From: a phage
Length of the DNA stretch: 38,310 nucleotides
Sequence record: PX946180.1
Direction: 5' to 3' (one strand)
Positions 1,948 through 38,310 of this stretch are shown here, piece after piece. A model generated the notes under the pieces. That model was not told the origin of the DNA. It saw nothing but the letters and a program-made list of their open reading frames with translations, and ran no database searches. The stretch's first letter is position 1. The number at the start of each line of letters is the position of its first letter. The translations under genes and the position numbers were made by a program.

Positions 1948-2374
1948 TTACTACAAAGTGGACCAGGCGAGTCCATCCGGTCTGGTCTCCGTTAGGACTG
2001 GAAAGCCTGTGGGGACGTTAAGTCGGATGGGATATTGGATAGTACAGACACGAAGTCTAGGCAGTAAGCGGGCACATCGCGTGATATGGGAACTAACCAA
2101 TGGTCCTATACCACATGGTATGCAAATAGACCACATCGACAGGAATCCCAGCAATAATACCTTAAGTAACTTACGGCTCGTTACTGCCGCTGAGAACACT
2201 TGGAATACTGGTAGCCATTATGACTCTAAGACAGGAGTGAAGTGCGTTACCCGTCACCAGAATGGTTATAGGATTCAGGTTAAACGCGGTAATGTCTATA
2301 TGCGAACAACACGTCCTACTTTAGAGGAGGCTATCTCTGTCCGGGACCTAATGCTGGAGGGACTCTATGTCTAA
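1937..2374 (+). CDS. HNH homing endonuclease (HNH_3 motif plus AP2-like DNA-binding region)
   Basis: 145 aa; motif [37 protein letters not shown]; overlaps Rz stop and large terminase start; T7 has no gene here. Confidence 0.85.
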
Positions 2375-4133
2375 GAAAACACCTGTTGAAAGACAGGCAG
2401 AAATGACCCAAAGGATGAGGGACGATTTCGTGTTCTTCATCTTCGTTCTCTGGAAAGCTCTTAGCCTTCCGGTTCCAACCCGCTGCCAGATAGATATGTG
2501 TAAGAAGCTGGCTGCTGGGGATAATCGCCGCTTCATCCTTCAGGCGTTCCGTGGTATTGGCAAGTCGTTTCTGACCTGTGGTTTCGTGGTCTGGAAACTA
2601 TGGAACAACCCAGACTTGAAGTTCATGATTGTGTCGGCCTCAAAGGAACGAGCCGATGCGAACTCCATCTTCATCAAGAGAATCATCGACCTCATGCCTC
2701 AGCTTCAGGAACTCAAACCTAAGCAGGGACAGCGAGATGCGGTTATCAGCTTCGACGTTGGGCCAGCCAAGCCAGACCACTCACCTTCTGTTAAGTCCGT
2801 TGGTATCACTGGTCAGTTGACTGGTAGTCGTGCTGACATACTGATTGCAGATGACGTGGAGGTTCCTAATAACTCTGCGACTCAGGCTGCACGAGACCGT
2901 CTGTCAGAGCTTGTGAAAGAGTTCGACGCTATCCTGAAGCCGGGAGGTACAATCATCTATCTGGGTACGCCTCAGAACGAGATGACCCTGTATCGTGAGC
3001 TGGAGGGTCGCGGCTATACGACGACTATCTGGCCTGCACGTTACCCTCGAGATAAGAAGGACTGGCAGTCTTACGGCGACCGTCTGGCTCCTATGCTTCA
3101 GGCAGAGCTGGAAGAGGACCCTGAATCCTTCTACTGGCGTCCGACCGATGAGGTACGATTCGATGATACGGACCTGAAGGAACGTGAGCTGTCCTATGGT
3201 AAGGCTGGCTTCGCGCTACAGTTCATGCTTAACCCGAACCTGAGTGATGCTGAGAAGTACCCTCTGAAGCTCCGTGACCTTATCGTAGCCGACTTGGACC
3301 CAGCGTCCAGCCCAATGGTCTACCAATGGTTGCCAAACCCTCAGAACAAGCGTGAGGACGTTCCTAACGTTGGACTCATGGGTGACTCATACCACACGTA
3401 TCAGACTGTAGGTTCTGCCTTCAGTTCGTACACCCAGAAGATTCTGGTCATTGACCCTAGTGGTCGTGGTAAGGATGAAACTGGTTATGCGGTACTGTAT
3501 CAGCTAAACGGCTACATCTTCGCTATGGAAGTTGGTGGTATGCGTGGTGGTTATGAAGACTCTACGCTGGAAGCCTTGGCTAAGATTGGTCGTAAGTGGA
3601 AGGTCAACGAATACGTCATTGAGGGTAACTTCGGTGATGGTATGTACCTTGAGCTATTCAAGCCTGTAGCGGCACGTATCCATCCTGCTGCTGTAACTGA
3701 AGTGAAGAGTAAGGGTCAGAAAGAACTCCGCATCTGTGACGTTCTGGAGCCTATCATGGGGTCTCACCGACTTATCGTTAACGCTTCTGCTATCGTCCAA
3801 GACTACCAGACAGCCTCTGATAAGGACGGCGTTCGTAACCCTATCTACTCTCTCTTCTACCAGATGACACGTATCTCTCGTGAACGTGGAGCCTTGGCAC
3901 ATGATGACCGACTTGATGCTCTGGCTATAGGTGTACAGTTCTTCGTTGAGTCTATGGCTAAGGATGCCAACAAAGGCGAACGTGAAGTCACTGAGGAGTG
4001 GCTGGAGGAACAGATGGAGAACCCACGGAAAGGCTTCGAGTCCATCCACACTGAGTTCTGGGACAATGGTGTCCGGGTAACTCACGATACGGGCGATGAG
4101 CTTGGGCTAGGGTCATACGTTACGTTCCACTAG
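2367..4133 (+). CDS. terminase large subunit (T7 gp19-like)
   Basis: 588 aa, collinear with recalled T7 gp19 (586 aa); Walker A-like GIGKS and nuclease region present. Confidence 0.95.
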
Positions 4134-4227
4134 CTGAATGAATAACTATAGGTGAAAGCTGCATGAATACGCAGTTAGTAACCTATAGTTACTACCAGTC
4201 TAACCTACTGTTTTACAAGGAGTTTGG

Positions 4228-5636: not shown

Positions 5637-6143
5637 ATGGAACGTAACGCTAACGCATACTATGACCTGCTGGCTGCAACCGTTAAAGCATTTAACGAAC
5701 GTATTCGGTCCGACGAAATAGCTGAAGGTGATGACTACCACGATGCGCTGCATGAAGTCGTAGACGGTCAGGTTCCGCTCTATTACCACGAGATTTTTAC
5801 GGTGATGGCTGCTGATGGCATAGACCACGAGTTCGAAGACTCTGGGCTGATGCCTGAGACCAAGGACGTAACGCGCATACTGCAAGCTCGCATCTATGAG
5901 GCACTGTATAACGACGTGTCTAATAGCTCGGATGTGGTCTGGTTTGAGGCTGAAGAGAGCGACGAAGGGGATAAGTATTGGGTAGTTGACGCTAAAACGG
6001 GACTATTCGTTGAGCAAGCTGTACCTCTTGAGGTCGCTATTGCATCTGCCAAAGACCTCTATGCGGTAGGTCATCACATGAAAGTCGAAGACATTAACGA
6101 TAACGTAGTGTTCGACCCTGCGGCTGAAGAGGACTGCGAGTGA
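5637..6143 (+). CDS. ocr: Ocr-like anti-restriction DNA mimic (gene 0.3) with extra ~65-aa C-terminal extension
   Basis: 168 aa; VPLYYHEIFTVMAADGIDHEFEDSGLMPETKDVTRILQARIYE closely matches recalled T7 Ocr core; first gene after the early promoter region. Confidence 0.85.
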   Translation: MERNANAYYDLLAATVKAFNERIRSDEIAEGDDYHDALHEVVDGQVPLYYHEIFTVMAADGIDHEFEDSGLMPETKDVTRILQARIYEALYNDVSNSSDVVWFEAEESDEGDKYWVVDAKTGLFVEQAVPLEVAIASAKDLYAVGHHMKVEDINDNVVFDPAAEEDCE

Positions 6144-7256: not shown

Positions 7257-9104
7257 ATGAGCGTCATCTCTATTGACAAACACGACTTCTCTGATGTGTC
7301 GAACGCCATTGAGCCGTTTAACCTGCTGGCTGACCACTACGGGCAAGACCTCGCAGTAAAGCAGCTTCAGCTTGAGCATGAGGCATACACTGAAGGCGAG
7401 CGACGTTTCATCAAGAACCTTGAGCGCCAGACTGAGCGCGGGGAACTGGCAGACAATCAGGTCGCCAAGCCTTTGATGCAGACTCTGGTCCCGACCATCG
7501 CTAAGGCTTTCCGTGAGTGGCATGAAGGCCCGGACGGTAAGTCCTCGACCTCTCGTCCAAGCGTAGCGTTCACCATGCTGAGCACTGACGAGAAGGCTGT
7601 CAAAGACCGCTCTCTGCTCATCTCTGCGGAGTCTGCTGCGGTCATCATACTGAAGGTCATTCTCAGCAAGCTGGTCAAGCCTGAAGGCATCCCGATAACT
7701 CCTATGGCGTCCGCGATAGGTCGAACACTGGAAGATGAAATCCGCTTTGGTCGCATCCGTGATCAGGAGAAGGAGCACTTCAAGAAGGCGATAGCTGAGA
7801 ACCTGAACAAGCGCGCAGGGGTATCCTACAAGAAAGCCTACATGCAAGCGGTTGAGACCTCCATGTTGGAGCAAGGCCAACTGGAAGATGCCTGGGGAAC
7901 TTGGAGTCCGACCGAGGCGGTCCATGTTGGCATCAAGATGCTTGAGATTGTCATCCAGTCTACTCAACTGGTAGAGCTTAAGCGTTATGGTGCTGGCAAT
8001 GCAGCGGCGGACGTTGAGATGGTCCACCTGTCAGACTTCTGGGTCAAGAAGATGGCTCAGCGTGGCTTCTCTCTTGCGGGAATCGCTCCAGTCTACCAGC
8101 CATGCGTAGTTCCGCCTAAGCCGTGGACCGGGGTGGTGGGTGGTGGGTACTGGGCTAAAGGCCGAAGACCACTACCACTGATTCGCTTAGGGTCTAAGTC
8201 TGCGGTGGCACGTTACGAAGATGTATACATGCCTGAAGTCTACGACGCTGTGAATATCATTCAGAATACACCTTGGAAAGTGAACAAGAAGGTTCTGAAC
8301 GTGGTGAACATGGTCGAGAAGCTGAACAACACGCCTATTGATGACATCCCTCAGATGGAACCGCTGAAGCCTGAGGACTATGCGGGTGAGACTGAAGAAG
8401 AACTTAAGGCATGGAAGAAAGCTGCTGCCGGTATCTATCGCCGCGAGAAGGCCCGACAGTCACGAAGATTGTCACTGAGCTTTATCGTTAACCAAGCGAA
8501 CAAGTTCTCTCAGTTCAAGGCTATCTGGTTCCCGTATAACATGGATTGGCGAGGTCGTGTCTACGCTGTCCCGATGTTCAACCCTCAGGGTAACGACATG
8601 CAAAAGGGACTCCTGACTCTGGCAGTCGGTAAGCCTATTGGTGCTGATGGTTTCAAATGGCTGAAGGTACGCAAGAAGGATACCACTCGTCTGAACCTGA
8701 TGTTCTTAGGGTCATTCAACCTTCAGCCTACAGTCAACAAAGGCGCGAAGAAAGAGCTTGACAAACACAAGCAGGAGTCAGGTATTAGCCCGAACTTCGT
8801 CCACTCACAAGATGGCAGTCACCTCCGCAAGACTGTAGTCCACACGCACCGCAAGTATGGCGTGATGTCGTTCGCAGTGATCCACGATAGCTTCGGGACC
8901 ATCCCGGCTGACGCTGAGTATCTGTTCCGTGGTGTCCGTGAGACGATGGTCGAGACCTACCGCGACAACGATGTGCTGCTTGACTTCTATGAGCAGTTTG
9001 AATACCAGCTTCATGAGAGCCAGCGCGACAAGCTGCCAGAGCTTCCGAAGAAAGGTGAACTGAATATCGAAGACATCCTGTCTTCAGACTTTGCATTCGC
9101 TTAA
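7257..9104 (+). CDS. T7-like single-subunit RNA polymerase with ~268-codon internal in-frame deletion (catalytic motifs A and B missing; probably non-functional)
   Basis: 615 aa versus 883 aa for T7 RNAP; N-terminal ~464 aa and C-terminal ~151 aa are collinear with T7 (promoter-binding domain, specificity loop, HKQESG..FVHSQDGSHLRK, IHDSFGT, terminal FAFA); junction GFKWLK/VRKKDTTRLNLMFLG at about 8664-8669; no DGSCSG or TLAYGS motif anywhere in the ORF. Confidence 0.85.
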   Translation: MSVISIDKHDFSDVSNAIEPFNLLADHYGQDLAVKQLQLEHEAYTEGERRFIKNLERQTERGELADNQVAKPLMQTLVPTIAKAFREWHEGPDGKSSTSRPSVAFTMLSTDEKAVKDRSLLISAESAAVIILKVILSKLVKPEGIPITPMASAIGRTLEDEIRFGRIRDQEKEHFKKAIAENLNKRAGVSYKKAYMQAVETSMLEQGQLEDAWGTWSPTEAVHVGIKMLEIVIQSTQLVELKRYGAGNAAADVEMVHLSDFWVKKMAQRGFSLAGIAPVYQPCVVPPKPWTGVVGGGYWAKGRRPLPLIRLGSKSAVARYEDVYMPEVYDAVNIIQNTPWKVNKKVLNVVNMVEKLNNTPIDDIPQMEPLKPEDYAGETEEELKAWKKAAAGIYRREKARQSRRLSLSFIVNQANKFSQFKAIWFPYNMDWRGRVYAVPMFNPQGNDMQKGLLTLAVGKPIGADGFKWLKVRKKDTTRLNLMFLGSFNLQPTVNKGAKKELDKHKQESGISPNFVHSQDGSHLRKTVVHTHRKYGVMSFAVIHDSFGTIPADAEYLFRGVRETMVETYRDNDVLLDFYEQFEYQLHESQRDKLPELPKKGELNIEDILSSDFAFA

Positions 9105-17125: not shown

Positions 17126-17168
17126 AGACTCAAGGTCATTCACAGCGAGTGGCCTTTATGATTAGACT
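17126..17168 (+). promoter_or_regulatory. R1.1-like RNase III processing element upstream of DNA polymerase
   Basis: AGACTCAAGGTCATTCACAGCGAGTGGCCTTTATGATTAGAC. Confidence 0.5.
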
Positions 17169-17184
17169 AAACGGAGGATTAACC

Positions 17185-19356
17185 ATGTTTGACCTTAAGA
17201 GTATCTGGGGTTCTGACATCGAGACCAACGGTCTCCTTGATACAGTCTCCCAGTTCCACTGTGGGGTCCTGATTAACGCCGAGTCGAATGAGACCCTTAA
17301 GTATGGGGTAGCTCCGATGGTCGGTATCGTCGGTGGCTTCAAAGAGTATGTTCAGAAGGTGGAAGAGATTGCCGCATCACCTGATGGTATGCTCGTCTTC
17401 CATAACGGTATCAACTATGACGTCCCGGCTATTGACAAGCTGAAACGTCTGTACTTTGGGAAACGATTTAACTTCCCGAAACACAAGATGATTGATACCT
17501 TGGTGCTGGGACGCTTGATGTATCCAAACATTAAGTTCTCGGACATGGGTGCTGTGAAAGCTGGTCGTCTGCCACCTCAGATGATGGGACGACAGTCTCT
17601 TGAGGCTTGGGGCTATCGTCTCGGTGAGATGAAAGGTGAATACAAACACGATTACGTTGCCAAATGCAAGGCTGAAGGTATCGAATATAAGGCTGGGGAC
17701 GAATGGTTGTTCCCGTCTCAGGAGATGCTGGACTATAACGTTCAAGACGTTGTGGTCACACTGGCGTTGTTCAAGAAGTTCCTGACTGACAAGTATTACT
17801 TCCAGTCTGAACAGTTCGCTTTCGACCAGATTTATGCGTTGCGTCTGGAACATGATGCTGCGTGGACCTGTGCGAAGATGGAACGTAACGGCTATCCGAT
17901 GAACATCGAGATGGTCGAAGGCTTATATCGTGAACTCACCGTCAAACGTGCAGAGCTGCTGGACAAGCTGCGTTCGACTTTCGGTAGCTGGTATGCACCG
18001 AAGGGTGGCAAGGAGTTCTTCAGGCATCCACGGACAGGCAAGGACCTTCCGAAGTATCCACGAGTCGTGTATCCTAAGGTCGGGTCAGTATTCAAGAAGC
18101 CGAAGAACAAAGCTCAACGCTTAGGTCTGGAGCCTTGCGAGTTCGACTCACGAGACACGATGGAGGGAGCACCATTCACGCCAATCACTTACGTTGAGTT
18201 TAATCCGGGAAGCGGAGACCACTTAGCGAAAGTCTTGATGGAGCGTGGTTGGGAGCCTGTGGACTTCACTGACACAGGGAAACCTGTAGTCGATGACGAG
18301 ACGTTAGAACACGTTAAGTTGCCAGACGCAGAGGCTCAGGCTTGCGTAGAGCTGGTCCGTGAGTATCTGGTAGTCCAGAAGCGCATCGGTCAGGCGGCTG
18401 AAGGTAAGAACGCATGGTTGAAACTTGTAGGTCCAGACGGACGTATGCACGGTTCAATCAACCCATGTGGTGCAGTAACCGGACGTGCGACTCATAGTAC
18501 ACCAAACATGGCTCAGGTCCCGGCTAACGGTGCCCCATATGGTGAGACTTGCCGTGGTGCTTTCGGTGCAGCGTGGAACAAGAAGGACGGTAAGTCAGAC
18601 CCTTGGATTCAAGTGGGTGTTGATGCCTCAGGTCTTGAGCTTCGTTGTCTGGGGAACCGAGCGGCTCCGTTTGATGGTGGTGCCTATGCGAAGACTGTGG
18701 TCGAAGGTGACATCCACTGGGCCAACGCAGTAAACGCTGGGTTAGCACCTAACGTCCCACGCGATAAGTCGAGCCACGACCATGATGCTTTCCGTAACAA
18801 CGCTAAGACGTTCATCTATGCGTTCCTGTATGGTGCAGGGGCCGCTAAGATTGGACTGATAGTAGGCGGTGGGAAGAAGGAAGGTTCAGCTCTCATGAAG
18901 AAATTCATTGAGGGCACACCAGCCATCAAGGACCTGCGAGATGCTGTGCAGAACACGCTCATCTCCGAGTCAAAATGGGTAGACGGTGAGAACATCGTGA
19001 AGTGGAAACGTCGCTGGCTAAAAGGTCTGGATGGTAGACGTATTCACATCCGGTCGCCACACTCAGCACTTAACGCATTACTTCAAGGCGATGGTGCGGT
19101 TGTCTGTAAGCACTGGATTGTCGAGACTGAACGTATGCTTGAAGAGGCAGGGTATGTTCACGGCTGGGAGGGAGACTTCGCGTACATGGCATGGGTTCAC
19201 GATGAGTTACAGATTGCTTGTCGTACTCAAGAAATAGCAGAACGTACAGTAGAAATTGCTCAACTTGCTATGCGTAAGGTGGGTGAGTTCTATAACTTTA
19301 AATGTGTCCTTGATACCGAAGGTAAGATTGGACCAACGTGGAAGGAGTGTCACTAA
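17185..19356 (+). CDS. DNA polymerase (T7 gp5-like, family A with 3'-5' exonuclease)
   Basis: 723 aa from ATG 17185 with GGAGG RBS (tracker start 17149 is probably upstream of the true start); collinear with recalled T7 gp5 across exo and pol motifs. Confidence 0.97.
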   Translation: MFDLKSIWGSDIETNGLLDTVSQFHCGVLINAESNETLKYGVAPMVGIVGGFKEYVQKVEEIAASPDGMLVFHNGINYDVPAIDKLKRLYFGKRFNFPKHKMIDTLVLGRLMYPNIKFSDMGAVKAGRLPPQMMGRQSLEAWGYRLGEMKGEYKHDYVAKCKAEGIEYKAGDEWLFPSQEMLDYNVQDVVVTLALFKKFLTDKYYFQSEQFAFDQIYALRLEHDAAWTCAKMERNGYPMNIEMVEGLYRELTVKRAELLDKLRSTFGSWYAPKGGKEFFRHPRTGKDLPKYPRVVYPKVGSVFKKPKNKAQRLGLEPCEFDSRDTMEGAPFTPITYVEFNPGSGDHLAKVLMERGWEPVDFTDTGKPVVDDETLEHVKLPDAEAQACVELVREYLVVQKRIGQAAEGKNAWLKLVGPDGRMHGSINPCGAVTGRATHSTPNMAQVPANGAPYGETCRGAFGAAWNKKDGKSDPWIQVGVDASGLELRCLGNRAAPFDGGAYAKTVVEGDIHWANAVNAGLAPNVPRDKSSHDHDAFRNNAKTFIYAFLYGAGAAKIGLIVGGGKKEGSALMKKFIEGTPAIKDLRDAVQNTLISESKWVDGENIVKWKRRWLKGLDGRRIHIRSPHSALNALLQGDGAVVCKHWIVETERMLEEAGYVHGWEGDFAYMAWVHDELQIACRTQEIAERTVEIAQLAMRKVGEFYNFKCVLDTEGKIGPTWKECH

Positions 19357-19520
19357 TGGCTAAAACTTATAGTGAGCAGGAGGTCAAAGACTTGATGCGG
19401 TCAGCTTGGTGGTGTGGACACGAGGAGTCTCGTTATAGTCCAAACCTCAGTGGTTCATGCAGTCGAGACATCCGTGAAATTCTTAAAGACCATAACGAAG
19501 AAGACGAAGGAGAAATCTAA
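19356..19520 (+). CDS. small hypothetical protein (54 aa)
   Basis: ATG overlaps DNAP stop (TAATG); trimmed from tracker ORF 19338..19520. Confidence 0.4.
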   Translation: MAKTYSEQEVKDLMRSAWWCGHEESRYSPNLSGSCSRDIREILKDHNEEDEGEI

Positions 19521-19792
19521 TGGCTATTACTAAACGCTTGACCTGTAAGTTTGACATGAAGATCGTCTTTACGTCTGAGGACGTTGAGTCATACGCTCTT
19601 GAGCTGGTGGAGCTGACCAAGTGTTATGTCTCCGGTGAGAAAATGGATGGTATGGCCCGTAAGCTGGTAGAGACTGCTGTAGAGCATGGGGTCGAAGCTG
19701 CCATTGAGCTGCACCTGAAGTCTGTTCTGGCGTCAAAACTGAAAGACGAGATGCAAGAGGTCTACAACATCAGCACGAGGTTCAAGCAATGA
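19520..19792 (+). CDS. gp5.5-like protein (assigned by position)
   Basis: 90 aa tracker ORF immediately upstream of the gp5.7 homolog; similarity to T7 gp5.5 not confirmed. Confidence 0.5.
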   Translation: MAITKRLTCKFDMKIVFTSEDVESYALELVELTKCYVSGEKMDGMARKLVETAVEHGVEAAIELHLKSVLASKLKDEMQEVYNISTRFKQ

Positions 19793-19998
19793 GTGAATAC
19801 TTACGGGTCCTAGCGGCCCTTAAGTCCTGCCCGAAGACCTTCCAGTCCAACTATGTGCGCAACAACGCTGCACTGGTGGCTGAGGCTGCGAGTCGTGGAC
19901 ATCTGAGCTGCCTGTCTATGGACGGGCGTAACAACGGTGCGTGGGAGATTACCGCTGCTGGCACCAAGTTCCTGAACCAACACGGAGGCTGTCTATGA
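19789..19998 (+). CDS. gp5.7-like protein
   Basis: 69 aa; LKSCPKTFQSNYVRNNA.LVAEAASRGH.SCL...GRN.GAWEITA.GT.FL...GGC nearly identical to recalled T7 gp5.7. Confidence 0.9.
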   Translation: MSEYLRVLAALKSCPKTFQSNYVRNNAALVAEAASRGHLSCLSMDGRNNGAWEITAAGTKFLNQHGGCL

Positions 19999-20231
19999 GT
20001 GAACTGGATTTACTGAAGAAGTTTGACGAGCTTATGTCACTCCTTAATGGTGAAGAGAACTCAATGGCTGAAGAGTTCCGCGAGGCTTTAGCAGCTAAGT
20101 TAGACCGTGCCGCTGATGATCGACTCTGGCGGGAGTGCTTGGAGTCTGGCGGGGTTGACAACTGGTCTTGGTTCTCTGAGTCACTGTCTGAAGGTGGATA
20201 CTACAAGGAGGACGACGATGACTTCGAATAA
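19995..20231 (+). CDS. acidic hypothetical protein (78 aa) at the gene 5.9 position
   Basis: ATG overlaps gp5.7 stop; strongly acidic, ends EDDDDFE; no sequence match to recalled T7 gp5.9. Confidence 0.5.
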   Translation: MSELDLLKKFDELMSLLNGEENSMAEEFREALAAKLDRAADDRLWRECLESGGVDNWSWFSESLSEGGYYKEDDDDFE

Positions 20232-21087
20232 GAAGATAGCTCTGGTTCTGGATGGTGACTACTTAGTGTTTTCGTCTATGGCTGCCGCAGAGGACGAGAC
20301 AGACTGGGGTGATGACATCTGGACCCTTATCTGCGACCATGAGAAGGCTCGTCGTATCCTTGAGAACACCATCGCTGAAATCGTTAAGAAGCGTAAGGCG
20401 TGGAAAGACGCTAAGATTGTGATGTGCTTTACTGACGATAACAACTGGCGTAAGGATGTTCTACCTACCTATAAGGCCAACCGTAAAGGTTCCCGCAAGC
20501 CTGTAGGTTACAAGAAGTTCGTAGCAGAAGTAATGGCTGACCCACGGTTCAACAGCTTCCTTCGTCCTACGCTTGAGGGTGATGACTGTATGGGTATCAT
20601 CGGGACCAGACCTCAGATTGTCGGATGTGACCATGCTGTTCTGGTGTCCTGCGACAAGGACTTCAAGACCATCCCAAACTGTGAGTTCTTCTGGTTAACC
20701 ACTGGTGAAATCCTGAGTCATACGACTGCCGAGGCAGACTACTGGCACATGGAGCAGACCATCAAGGGTGACACTACAGATGGCTACGGTGGTATTCCGG
20801 GGATGGGTGAGGACACCACTCGTGCGTTCCTTGACGAGCCGTACTACTTCGTGCAGGAGAGCCGTGAGCTTAAGACTGGTAAGAACAAAGGCCAGATTAA
20901 GACCGAATGGAAGAAGTACCCGAAGCGTGAAGACATGACGCTGTGGGACTGCATGGTTACACTGGCTGCTAAGGCTGGCATGACCGAGGATGAACTCCTG
21001 GTCCAAGCTCAGGTCGCCCGTATTTGTCGAGCCTCCGACTACGACCCTAAGTCCAAGGAGGTCATCCTGTGGACACCATCCATGTAG
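20218..21087 (+). CDS. 5'-3' exonuclease (T7 gp6-like)
   Basis: 289 aa from ATG 20218 (tracker ORF 20107 starts upstream in frame); WRK...YKANRK, PVGY, LEGDD.MG, SCDKDFKTIPNC, QTIKGD.TDGY, GKNKGQ and TLWDC match recalled T7 gp6. Confidence 0.95.
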   Translation: MTSNKKIALVLDGDYLVFSSMAAAEDETDWGDDIWTLICDHEKARRILENTIAEIVKKRKAWKDAKIVMCFTDDNNWRKDVLPTYKANRKGSRKPVGYKKFVAEVMADPRFNSFLRPTLEGDDCMGIIGTRPQIVGCDHAVLVSCDKDFKTIPNCEFFWLTTGEILSHTTAEADYWHMEQTIKGDTTDGYGGIPGMGEDTTRAFLDEPYYFVQESRELKTGKNKGQIKTEWKKYPKREDMTLWDCMVTLAAKAGMTEDELLVQAQVARICRASDYDPKSKEVILWTPSM

Positions 21088-36691: not shown

Positions 36692-38310
36692 ATGTCCACG
36701 ATTACACAATTCCCTTCAGGAAACACTCAGTACAGGATTGAGTTCGACTACCTAGCCAGAACGTTTATTGTTGTTACGCTGGTGAATAGCTCTAACCCTA
36801 CCCTGAACCGTGTACTGGAAGTTGGTCGAGATTACCGATTCCTTAATCCAACGATGCTTGAGATGTTGGTTGACCAATCAGGTTTCGACATCGTTCGTAT
36901 TCACCGTCAGACTGGAACTGACTTAGTGGTAGACTTCAGGAATGGCTCAGTGTTGACAGCTAGTGACCTGACCAATGCAGAGCTTCAGGCTATCCATATT
37001 GCAGAAGAAGGTCGAGACCAAACTGTTGACTTAGCGAAGGAATATGCCGATGCTGCTGGTAACTCTGCTGGCAACGCTAAGGACAGCGAGGACGAAGCAC
37101 GCCGAATCGCTGAGAGTATCAAGGCAGCTGGTCTAACTGGCTATATTACCCGTAGATCCTTCGAGAAAGGCTTCAACGTTACAACATGGAACGAGGTCCT
37201 GCTATGGGAGGATGATGGTGAATATTACCGCTGGGATGGTACGCTCCCAAAGAACGTTCCTGCTGGCTCAACTCCTGAATCATCTGGTGGAATTGGATTA
37301 GGAGCGTGGGTTAGTGTTGGTGATGCATCGCTGAGATCTCAGATAGCCTCCGTAACCGGATTTAATCTTGTAGGTCAGGTGCCAGATGTAACTACATTAC
37401 GCAATACAGAACCGACAACAGACAGCAAGAGAATCCTCCTTCGCGAATACACAGCAGGCACAGGATATGGTGGCGGTCAGTTACGAGCAATCCTTGACGG
37501 AAGCTCTTACGTTGACAACGGCGTTACTGTGTTTAAAACAACTGGTGGTGCTGCATGGGTCCGCGTTAACGCAGATATCATTACATCCTTCATGGCGGGT
37601 GCTGTGCCTGATGCAGGTACTACTGATAACACGGCTGCTATTAATCGCTTCCTCGCCGCAGGTAAGAAATTGGTTATGAGGGATGGTATCTTTGGTCATT
37701 CTGGTCAAATTTCTTTGCAAACAGGTATATCTCTTGATTTATCTGGAGCGACAATAAAACCATCATCGACTCTACTCACCGCTGCTTGGGTGGGGAGCAA
37801 CTTGTTTGATGTAAAAATAACCGGCGGCGTGTTTGAAGGAACTGGCTTGGACAATACAGCTGGCAACGGCCATCTTTTGCTGCTTTCTAATTGCCAAGGG
37901 TGCTACGTAGATGGCACTACATTTACGAAATCTCCGCAGGATGGATTGCGATTTGTATCTTGTACACGATGTATTGCGAGTAACGCTATTTCGTACAACA
38001 ACCTTTCTGTAGGTATTCAAGACCGCGATGGGGATTACAACACTATCATTGGGTGTAAATGTAACGGTAATGGTAATACAGGAACGGTTGCTGGAGTTGG
38101 TGGTCGAGGTATTCTCACATGGCGTAGCTTTGGCACAAAAGTTATCGCCTGTGACGCGTTCAATAACACAGAGTATGGCATTCGGGCATATTCGCAAGCA
38201 GGAGATTCCAGAGGTTCGACTCAAATCCTGATTAGTGATTGCCACACCGGCGATAACACTAAGATTGATATTTACGTGTACAACGAAATCGGAAGCCTGT
38301 CTGAGATACT
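36692..38310 (+). CDS. tail fiber/tailspike, 5' part (T7 gp17-like N-terminal adaptor plus start of beta-helix domain); continues at 1..857
   Basis: ATG 36692 with AAGGAGG RBS; N-terminal ~150 aa resemble the recalled T7 gp17 tail-attachment domain (FDYLAR.F.VVTL, DYRF, LV.DF..GS.L.A.DL, HIAEE.RD); frame stays open to the window end and continues at position 1; total about 782 aa. Confidence 0.9.
   Translation, partial: MSTITQFPSGNTQYRIEFDYLARTFIVVTLVNSSNPTLNRVLEVGRDYRFLNPTMLEMLVDQSGFDIVRIHRQTGTDLVVDFRNGSVLTASDLTNAELQAIHIAEEGRDQTVDLAKEYADAAGNSAGNAKDSEDEARRIAESIKAAGLTGYITRRSFEKGFNVTTWNEVLLWEDDGEYYRWDGTLPKNVPAGSTPESSGGIGLGAWVSVGDASLRSQIASVTGFNLVGQVPDVTTLRNTEPTTDSKRILLREYTAGTGYGGGQLRAILDGSSYVDNGVTVFKTTGGAAWVRVNADIITSFMAGAVPDAGTTDNTAAINRFLAAGKKLVMRDGIFGHSGQISLQTGISLDLSGATIKPSSTLLTAAWVGSNLFDVKITGGVFEGTGLDNTAGNGHLLLLSNCQGCYVDGTTFTKSPQDGLRFVSCTRCIASNAISYNNLSVGIQDRDGDYNTIIGCKCNGNGNTGTVAGVGGRGILTWRSFGTKVIACDAFNNTEYGIRAYSQAGDSRGSTQILISDCHTGDNTKIDIYVYNEIGSLSEI
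38184..38310 (+). repeat. assembly overlap: exact copy of positions 1-127 (circular contig artifact)
   Basis: Direct comparison: 38184-38310 is identical to 1-127 and lies inside the tail fiber coding sequence. Confidence 0.9.

Follow-up and report, generated by a model that had tools for sequence, protein, structure and literature searches.

The closest described counterpart of the gene examined here is gene 5.9 of phages T7 and T3, the product of which (gp5.9; PDB 8B1R and 9GMB; phrog_9014) is encoded between genes 5.7 and 6. The T7 protein consists of 52 amino acid residues (pI 4.08, net charge −8) and is distinguished by its binding to the RecB arm, which blocks the DNA binding of RecBCD. 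Each chain contributes a single long helix to a parallel coiled coil, and an N-terminal β-sheet, the strand of which reads LVTIPR, braces the dimer; small size, acidity, helicity, and dimerization are the properties associated with DNA mimicry in the paper describing it (PMC9836394). MukBEF is its second target (PMC7617805). Inhibition of RecBCD also serves as a read-out for the defense systems retron Ec48, P2 OLD, and Sir2-HerA type III. The T7 type of gp5.9 is very narrow, with 12 clusters at 90% identity, T3 included. Also to be considered are λ Gam and mimics of the Ocr/ArdA type, which are small, acidic, helical, and dimeric phage proteins occupying the DNA site of host enzymes, and gp28 of Klebsiella phage KpV763 (phrog_6234; pI 4.05), which is encoded in a Studiervirinae genome directly upstream of the exonuclease gene and is annotated as "host RecBCD nuclease inhibitor."

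The window analyzed here is the whole of a 38,310-nt stretch of phage DNA (sequence record PX946180.1), which is a complete, circularly permuted genome of a K1F-like phage (Kayfunavirus, Studiervirinae). A nucleotide search with the region 19300-20500 matched 248 phage records, the majority of them Kayfunavirus. Every gene identified in the window is located on the plus strand, and a search of the window against Rfam gave no match. Exact direct repeats of 127 nt are present at the ends (1-127 is identical to 38184-38310); since the window starts in the tail-fiber/holin/Rz/terminase region, and not at the early end, these look like the overlap of a circular contig and not a T7-type terminal repeat. 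An ORF resembling HNH-type homing endonucleases (1937-2374, +; 145 aa) lies directly 5′ of, and overlaps, the gene for the large subunit of the terminase (2367-4133). The RNA polymerase ORF (7257-9104, +) specifies only 615 aa. Relatives align with it in two pieces spanning 2682 nt, which points to an in-frame deletion of 834 nt (278 codons) from the middle of the gene, with the junction near ...GFKWLKV and RKKDTTRLN...; the genome could be defective, or the sequence mis-assembled or edited. The second most acidic product in the window (pI 4.14, net charge −29) is specified by a 168-aa ORF in the early region (5637-6143, +), which lies at the gene 0.3 position and is a candidate for an Ocr-like DNA mimic.

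The local gene order begins with the DNA polymerase gene (17149-19356, +) and continues with an ORF of 54 aa (19356-19520, +), gene 5.5 (19520-19792, +), gene 5.7 (19789..19998, +; 69 aa), the acidic gene of interest (19995..20231 including the stop codon, +; 78 aa), and gene 6 (20218..21087, +; 289 aa). The upstream neighbor matches phrog_1334 (E 7.3e-39) and is annotated as gp5.7 in relatives; the downstream neighbor is the 5′-3′ exonuclease (phrog_107, E 2.9e-80; PF02739). The position between the two is referred to below as the 5.9 slot. The 54-aa ORF begins at the stop codon of the DNA polymerase gene and its product is acidic (pI 4.69; phrog_20928); because it is missing in phages ZH4 and ASO2B, we regard it as a further variable accessory gene beside the 5.5-5.9 block. 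The window contains 11 copies of a 23-nt phage promoter (consensus ..TAAACTATCACTATAGGGA), all on the plus strand, at positions 4226, 7163, 9860, 11553, 12663, 15128, 21212, 24033, 25013, 29345, and 36621. The scan of the window found none between 15128 and 21212, which argues that genes 4 to 6, including the ORF in the 5.9 slot, are transcribed as one unit with the replication genes. A second copy of the slot gene, or a T7-type gp5.9, was searched for elsewhere in the window and is absent.

The slot gene starts with ATG and possesses a Shine-Dalgarno sequence, GGAGG (19984-19988, +), 6 nt 5′ of that codon and within the end of gene 5.7. Its start codon overlaps the TGA of gene 5.7 as ATGA (4 nt), through which it is translationally coupled to gene 5.7, and its stop codon falls within gene 6 (which begins with the ATG at 20218), the two genes sharing 14 nt; the overlap between T7 genes 5.9 and 6 is likewise 14 nt. 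The first-pass annotation, which had located this gene at the gene 5.9 position with overlaps on both sides, was correct in this respect. Comparison with two relatives, phages ZH4 and CLB_P1, gives pN/pS values of 0.17-0.18, from which we conclude that this is a real, conserved gene. The reading that it is not a gene is ruled out by these values together with the presence of a Shine-Dalgarno site and the extent of the protein family described below. An antisense ORF at 19949..20161 was set aside because all of the genes identified in the window are on the plus strand. The computed pI of the product is 4.06 and its net charge −15 (23 Asp and Glu versus 8 Lys and Arg), which makes it the most acidic product when all plus-strand ORFs of the window with 45 aa or more are compared; these values, and a C-terminus reading EDDDDFE, agree with the earlier description of a strongly acidic protein.

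The 78-residue protein matches Pfam family PF25708 (Phage_T7_Gp5_9) with 43.4 bits (E 3.2e-11; residues 21-74, profile positions 3-46), the curated gathering cutoff being 24.5 bits. Among the PHROGs it matches phrog_6163, a group with unknown function, at E 3.8e-23 and, more weakly, phrog_6234 (over residues 47-69) and phrog_4790, both of which are labeled "host RecBCD nuclease inhibitor"; NCBIfam holds no family for it. A homolog search produced 25 close relatives, with public proteins 92-97% identical, and a profile search returned 800 relatives. When searched exhaustively, the family profile collected 3128 clusters at 50% identity (E<=1e-3). The protein is therefore an ordinary member of a catalogued, understudied family, the label of which may be wrong. 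The first-pass annotation had suggested an analogous or novel inhibitor. Novelty fails for the sequence, given PF25708, phrog_6163, and the nearly identical public proteins, and partly survives for the biology, with regard to a functional label derived from synteny and a marginal profile match, a fold without a solved counterpart, and the target; an analog rather than an ortholog of T7 gp5.9 is possible.

Alignment of the family reveals three parts, namely an N module, a core, and an acidic tail. The N module (residues 1-30, LLKKFDELMSLLNGEENSMAEEFRE; 19995..20084, +) runs from helix 1 through a conserved LN-E-N loop into the first part of helix 2. Its consensus is FDxLMSHLNxEENxMAxEFR, in which L13 and N18 are each conserved at 97% and E20 at 94%. 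The core, or GVDNW unit (residues 40-70, ADDRLWRECLESGGVDNWSWFSESLSEGGYY; 20112..20204, +), takes in the last part of the long helix, followed by the G-V-D-N-W turn and a short helix, with the consensus DDxLWRxCLExGGVDNWxWxxESLxxGGYY. Residues V54, D55, N56, and W57 are invariant in 72 sequences, and D42, L49, E50, and G53 are conserved in at least 90% of them. The 78-aa protein carries the pattern by which members are recognized, LW..CLE..GVDNW..(F/Y)..(S/A)L (helix, turn, helix). Conserved hydrophobic residues occur along helices 1 and 2 (L6, L7, F10, L13, M14, L17, M24, A25, F28, L32, L36, A39, L44, W45, C48, and L49) and around the turn and last helix (V54, W57, F60, and L64); the remaining positions are variable, polar, or acidic. 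A hydrophobic stripe and turn set against a variable or acidic remainder is the pattern expected of a charge-displaying scaffold. Acidity characterizes the whole family, with a median pI of 4.12 and 96% of 204 small members below 4.6.

The form found here will be called type A. A shorter form of 51-57 aa, type B, has the same core and tail and is typified by KpV763 gp28; here the 30-residue helical module (LMSHLNxEENxMAxEF) is replaced by a strand-helix element, xxVTI(P/T)KxEYxxL. The relationship of the type A core to type B is clear (hhalign 99.6%), and an independent type B model gives the 78-aa protein a score of 64.4 bits. Tandem pairs of GVDNW units are found in 50 of the 150 top representatives at a spacing of 26-71 residues, mostly 31-40, and AlphaFold2 models a minimal tandem of 62 aa as four helices (pLDDT 91.9, pTM 0.73). 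The frequency of the tandems and the folding of the minimal one in AlphaFold2 suggest that the working unit is a pair. Some larger proteins, among them gp26 of Burkholderia phage DC1 (431 aa), carry the core at their end. Since the partner domains of longer GVDNW proteins, including this one, gave no Pfam match beyond PF25708, the fusions provide no functional clue.

The N module also occurs apart from the core. It stands alone in a 42-aa ORF of phage ECBP5 and is found (FWSLMSHLNSEDNDMAHEF) at residues 92-113 of an acidic 149-aa protein (pI 4.4; phrog_4382) which fills the 5.9 slot of Salmonella phage PRF-SP2 (L005 844-1293) and Enterobacter phage KKP_3263 (L006 945-1394). This 149-aa protein has the N module without the GVDNW core, which argues that the two halves of the 78-aa protein are separable modules. 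Short ORFs specifying the N module alone in ECBP5 (42571-42654) and most of type A in Cronobacter phage GW1 (26552-26701) lie under features labeled "putative tail spike protein," which are probably mis-annotations.

The monomer was modeled using AlphaFold2 with an alignment of 72 sequences. The resulting model (pLDDT 84.5) possesses helices at residues 3-16, 23-52, and 57-66, and a disordered tail; the GVDNW motif lies in the turn that leads into the third helix. Each of the three predicted helices carries a hydrophobic stripe of conserved residues. In its small size, pI of about 4, and predicted helical structure, the protein resembles DNA mimics. Foldseek comparison of the model with the PDB revealed no match (best E 4.5), and against BFVD it retrieved only members of the same family.

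The acidic tail (KEDDDDFE; 20205..20228, +) is predicted to be disordered, with pLDDT below 50 for residues 75-78. The DNA which encodes it also carries the ribosome-binding site (GGAGG, 20207-20211) and the ATG (20218) of gene 6, so that the last codons of the slot gene, GAG GAC GAC GAT GAC TTC GAA, double as the ribosome-binding site and first codons of the exonuclease gene. The overlap thus accounts in part for the EDDDDFE ending. In phage PRF-SP2, the unrelated 149-aa slot protein has ..LDDGF as its last residues, where its gene covers the equivalent start region of gene 6 (GACGATG). Tail acidity is nevertheless a family-wide property, with Asp or Glu at 82-92% at positions 72-76 of the 72 sequences, and the C-termini of relatives read ...EDDE, ...DEDE, and similar. 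An aromatic residue is present within the last three positions in only 22% of the small family members.

Among T7-like phages, the 5.9 slot behaves as a cassette, the content of which varies. It contains a T7-type gp5.9 in T7 and T3; a type B protein in KpV763; a type A protein in the window and in phages ZH4, CLB_P1, PDP351P4, EPr2, yong1, Pectobacterium PP74, and Klebsiella P510; the 149-aa protein in PRF-SP2, KKP_3263, and many Salmonella and Enterobacter Kayfunaviruses; and a basic protein of 72 aa in Mt1B1_P3. In ASO2B it is empty. The allele found here, at 87-97% nucleotide identity, is restricted to six records representing five phages, compared with the 248 records sharing the same flanks. 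Because the slot can be empty or hold a basic protein, position alone indicates only that this is an accessory gene. The annotations of genes 5.5 and 5.7 in T7-like phages name H-NS as the target, on which basis the neighborhood of the slot can be considered one of host takeover.

The family extends well beyond these phages. In Klebsiella Przondoviruses, the GVDNW gene lies directly 5′ of a T7-like gene 6 exonuclease, and in a distant 44-kb podovirus contig (L018) it is situated between the DNA polymerase and an exonuclease which is 34% identical. The homolog in phage ST32 lies at the end of a DNA-metabolism block (exonuclease, ligase, and dUTPase). Outside the T7-like phages, GVDNW proteins are found in Chaseviridae, Ounavirinae, Pakpunavirus, SPO1-like, Enterococcus, Rhodococcus, and cyanophage (Synechococcus) genomes, and the family is common in Bacillus and Enterococcus phages; among the loci examined, no consistent gene neighbor was found outside the T7-like group. 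A T7-like exonuclease adjoins the GVDNW gene in 4 of 80 sampled viral loci.

The type A protein and T7 gp5.9 share their slot, the extent of their overlap with gene 6, their small size, a pI close to 4, a Pfam label and, presumably, their timing of expression. They differ in length and, as far as AlphaFold2 predicts, in architecture, the three helices, GVDNW turn, and disordered tail of the former contrasting with the N-terminal strand and single long helix of the latter. The first-pass annotation had remarked that the two do not obviously align, and BLASTP yields no alignment at E<=100. Neither phmmer nor the 72-sequence family profile (E<=10) retrieved the gp5.9 chains 8b1r_P and 9gmb_I from the PDB, where a control query with T7 gp5.9 retrieves gp5.9 chains at 1.7e-30. 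Alignment of the type A family to the T7 gp5.9 family by hhalign gives a probability of 1%. Direct homology was accordingly rejected, the BLASTP, phmmer, profile, and hhalign comparisons all being negative. T7 gp5.9 also matches phrog_9014 and none of phrog_6163, phrog_6234, or phrog_4790.

The common Pfam label can be traced further. T7 gp5.9 (L001 960-1118) reaches 27.8 bits against PF25708, a little over the cutoff, whereas GVDNW proteins reach 60-70 bits, for example 63.9 for the type B protein KpV763 gp28 and 66.3 for that of P0100. Judged by these scores, PF25708 is essentially a type B/GVDNW model, and T7 gp5.9 is a marginal member of the family that bears its own name. On an independent type B model built from 47 sequences, T7 gp5.9 scores 4.5 bits, a value reached by 13 of 1000 shuffled sequences and by 115 of 1000 when its first 16 residues are held fixed and the rest shuffled; this shows that no signal for the model resides in the C-terminal two thirds of the T7 protein. 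Consistent with this, hhalign of type B with T7 gp5.9 gives probabilities of 17-38% over 16-17 N-terminal columns only, where an N-terminal strand, (D)TVTIPR, is weakly common to both. The 78-aa protein has no strand of the VTIPR type, its N-terminus being predicted as helical (residues 3-16). As far as sequence comparison goes, the link is thus a chain in which T7 gp5.9 weakly resembles type B at the N-terminus, type B resembles type A in the core, and type A and T7 gp5.9 have no region in common.

What does the protein do? We tentatively favor an explanation which we consider somewhat short of an even proposition. The 78-aa gene is a class II accessory gene of a K1F-like phage, belonging to the DNA-metabolism period, with a small, very acidic, and (by a confident prediction) all-helical product made up of the N-terminal helical module, one GVDNW unit, and the disordered acidic tail. 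We infer that pairing through the GVDNW unit would give a compact, highly negative dimer (about −30), which may act as a stoichiometric decoy on the nucleic-acid-binding surface of a host DNA-processing enzyme, thereby protecting linear phage DNA and intermediates of replication and recombination. The mechanism, proposed by analogy, is that of λ Gam, Ocr, and ArdA. RecBCD would be the likeliest target for a T7-like phage of enterobacteria, making the protein a functional analog, and not an ortholog, of T7 gp5.9. The broader claim, that the protein is a decoy for some host DNA-binding protein, we regard as somewhat probable; for RecBCD in particular, the leading candidate, our expectation is distinctly weaker.

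Several observations favor the decoy. The gene occupies the slot of T7/T3 gp5.9 with an identical overlap in a genome otherwise lacking a T7-type gp5.9, GVDNW genes adjoin a T7-like exonuclease in Klebsiella Przondoviruses and the L018 contig, and the gene is co-transcribed with those for replication. The pI and charge are near those of T7 gp5.9, acidity is maintained across the family, the conservation is scaffold-like, and GVDNW units occur in tandem. The protein also passes the PF25708 cutoff and matches PHROGs with a RecBCD inhibitor label. However, the literature on gp5.9 homologs, PF25708, the GVDNW motif, and Kayfunavirus with RecBCD yielded no published experiments on GVDNW-type proteins, and the "RecBCD inhibitor" labels on such proteins in GenBank appear to be transferred annotation. 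A role as a nuclease inhibitor, as first suggested, is a reasonable guess from synteny and charge. Against RecBCD are the undetectable homology to T7 gp5.9, the different predicted fold, the acceptance of unrelated genes by the slot, and the rarity of an adjacent T7-like exonuclease among the sampled loci. Bacillus and Enterococcus hosts use AddAB/RexAB rather than RecBCD. Since the family is also found in phages of these hosts, and in those of Rhodococcus and Synechococcus, it cannot as a whole be RecBCD-specific.

The protein might instead be an acidic decoy or DNA mimic directed at a different host target, such as a MukBEF-like SMC complex, a restriction or DNA-sensing defense, or a nucleoid protein, with RecBCD left unaffected. 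We consider this rather unlikely for the 78-aa protein. In its favor, the slot behaves as an accessory locus into which at least five different contents have been swapped, its neighborhood includes two genes annotated as acting on H-NS, the family is present in very different genomic contexts and in phages whose hosts lack RecBCD, and T7 gp5.9 itself also acts on MukBEF (PMC7617805) and triggers other defense systems. Nothing, however, points to a particular alternative target, the one slot occupant that has been tested, T7 gp5.9, inhibits RecBCD, and the coupling to the phage exonuclease fits a role in the metabolism of DNA ends.

A role inside the phage is improbable. It would have the acidic tail, with its near-terminal Phe, dock on the DNA polymerase, the helicase, or the gene 6 exonuclease, as the acidic tails of T7 gp2.5 and gp4 bind gp5 in the T7 replisome. 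In its favor, the C-terminus reads EDDDDFE, the gene is flanked by those for the polymerase and the exonuclease, with translational coupling to the latter, and the ST32 homolog lies at the end of the block of exonuclease, ligase, and dUTPase genes. Yet the Phe is not conserved in the family and is itself imposed by the overlap with gene 6, and close relatives with the same polymerase and exonuclease lack the gene, which places it outside the core machinery. That the protein is a highly diverged but true ortholog of T7 gp5.9, with the same origin, coiled-coil DNA-mimic architecture, and RecB-arm binding mode, seems very improbable. The Pfam curators did place both proteins in PF25708, position, overlap, and pI agree, and the type B relatives carry the (D)TVTIPR motif of the T7 family at their N-termini. 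What decides against this is that T7 gp5.9 falls far below type B proteins on the PF25708 model, is matched by shuffled sequences on the independent one, and aligns with type B over its first residues only, and that type A lacks the N-terminal strand and has a predicted topology unlike that of T7 gp5.9.

For the genome itself, the outcome is a routine annotation, namely an acidic protein of the PF25708/GVDNW family which is encoded in the 5.9 slot and the function of which is putative. For the family, it means that a very common group of phage proteins inherits the name of a T7 gp5.9 RecBCD inhibitor when the protein which was tested is marginal in its own Pfam family; in our comparisons, its similarity to the short form extends over no more than the first 16-17 residues, and none is detectable to the form described here. 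We consider it not far from an even proposition that GVDNW proteins constitute an independent, structurally new, and widespread class of host-interference proteins (more than 3000 clusters at 50% identity; single, tandem, or fused; in phages of Gram-negative, Gram-positive, and cyanobacterial hosts), unrelated to T7 gp5.9 in origin, fold, and possibly target. The "RecBCD inhibitor" label would then have arisen from synteny and a seven-residue N-terminal motif, and GVDNW proteins would be the older occupants of the polymerase-exonuclease slot in the Autographiviridae, with the coiled-coil gp5.9 of T7 and T3 as a later replacement. The polymorphism of the 5.9 slot in Kayfunavirus offers a set of close phages differing at this position, which is suited to testing such proposals. 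The identity of the GVDNW target or targets, be it RecBCD, another enzyme, or several, would change the reading of thousands of phage genes.
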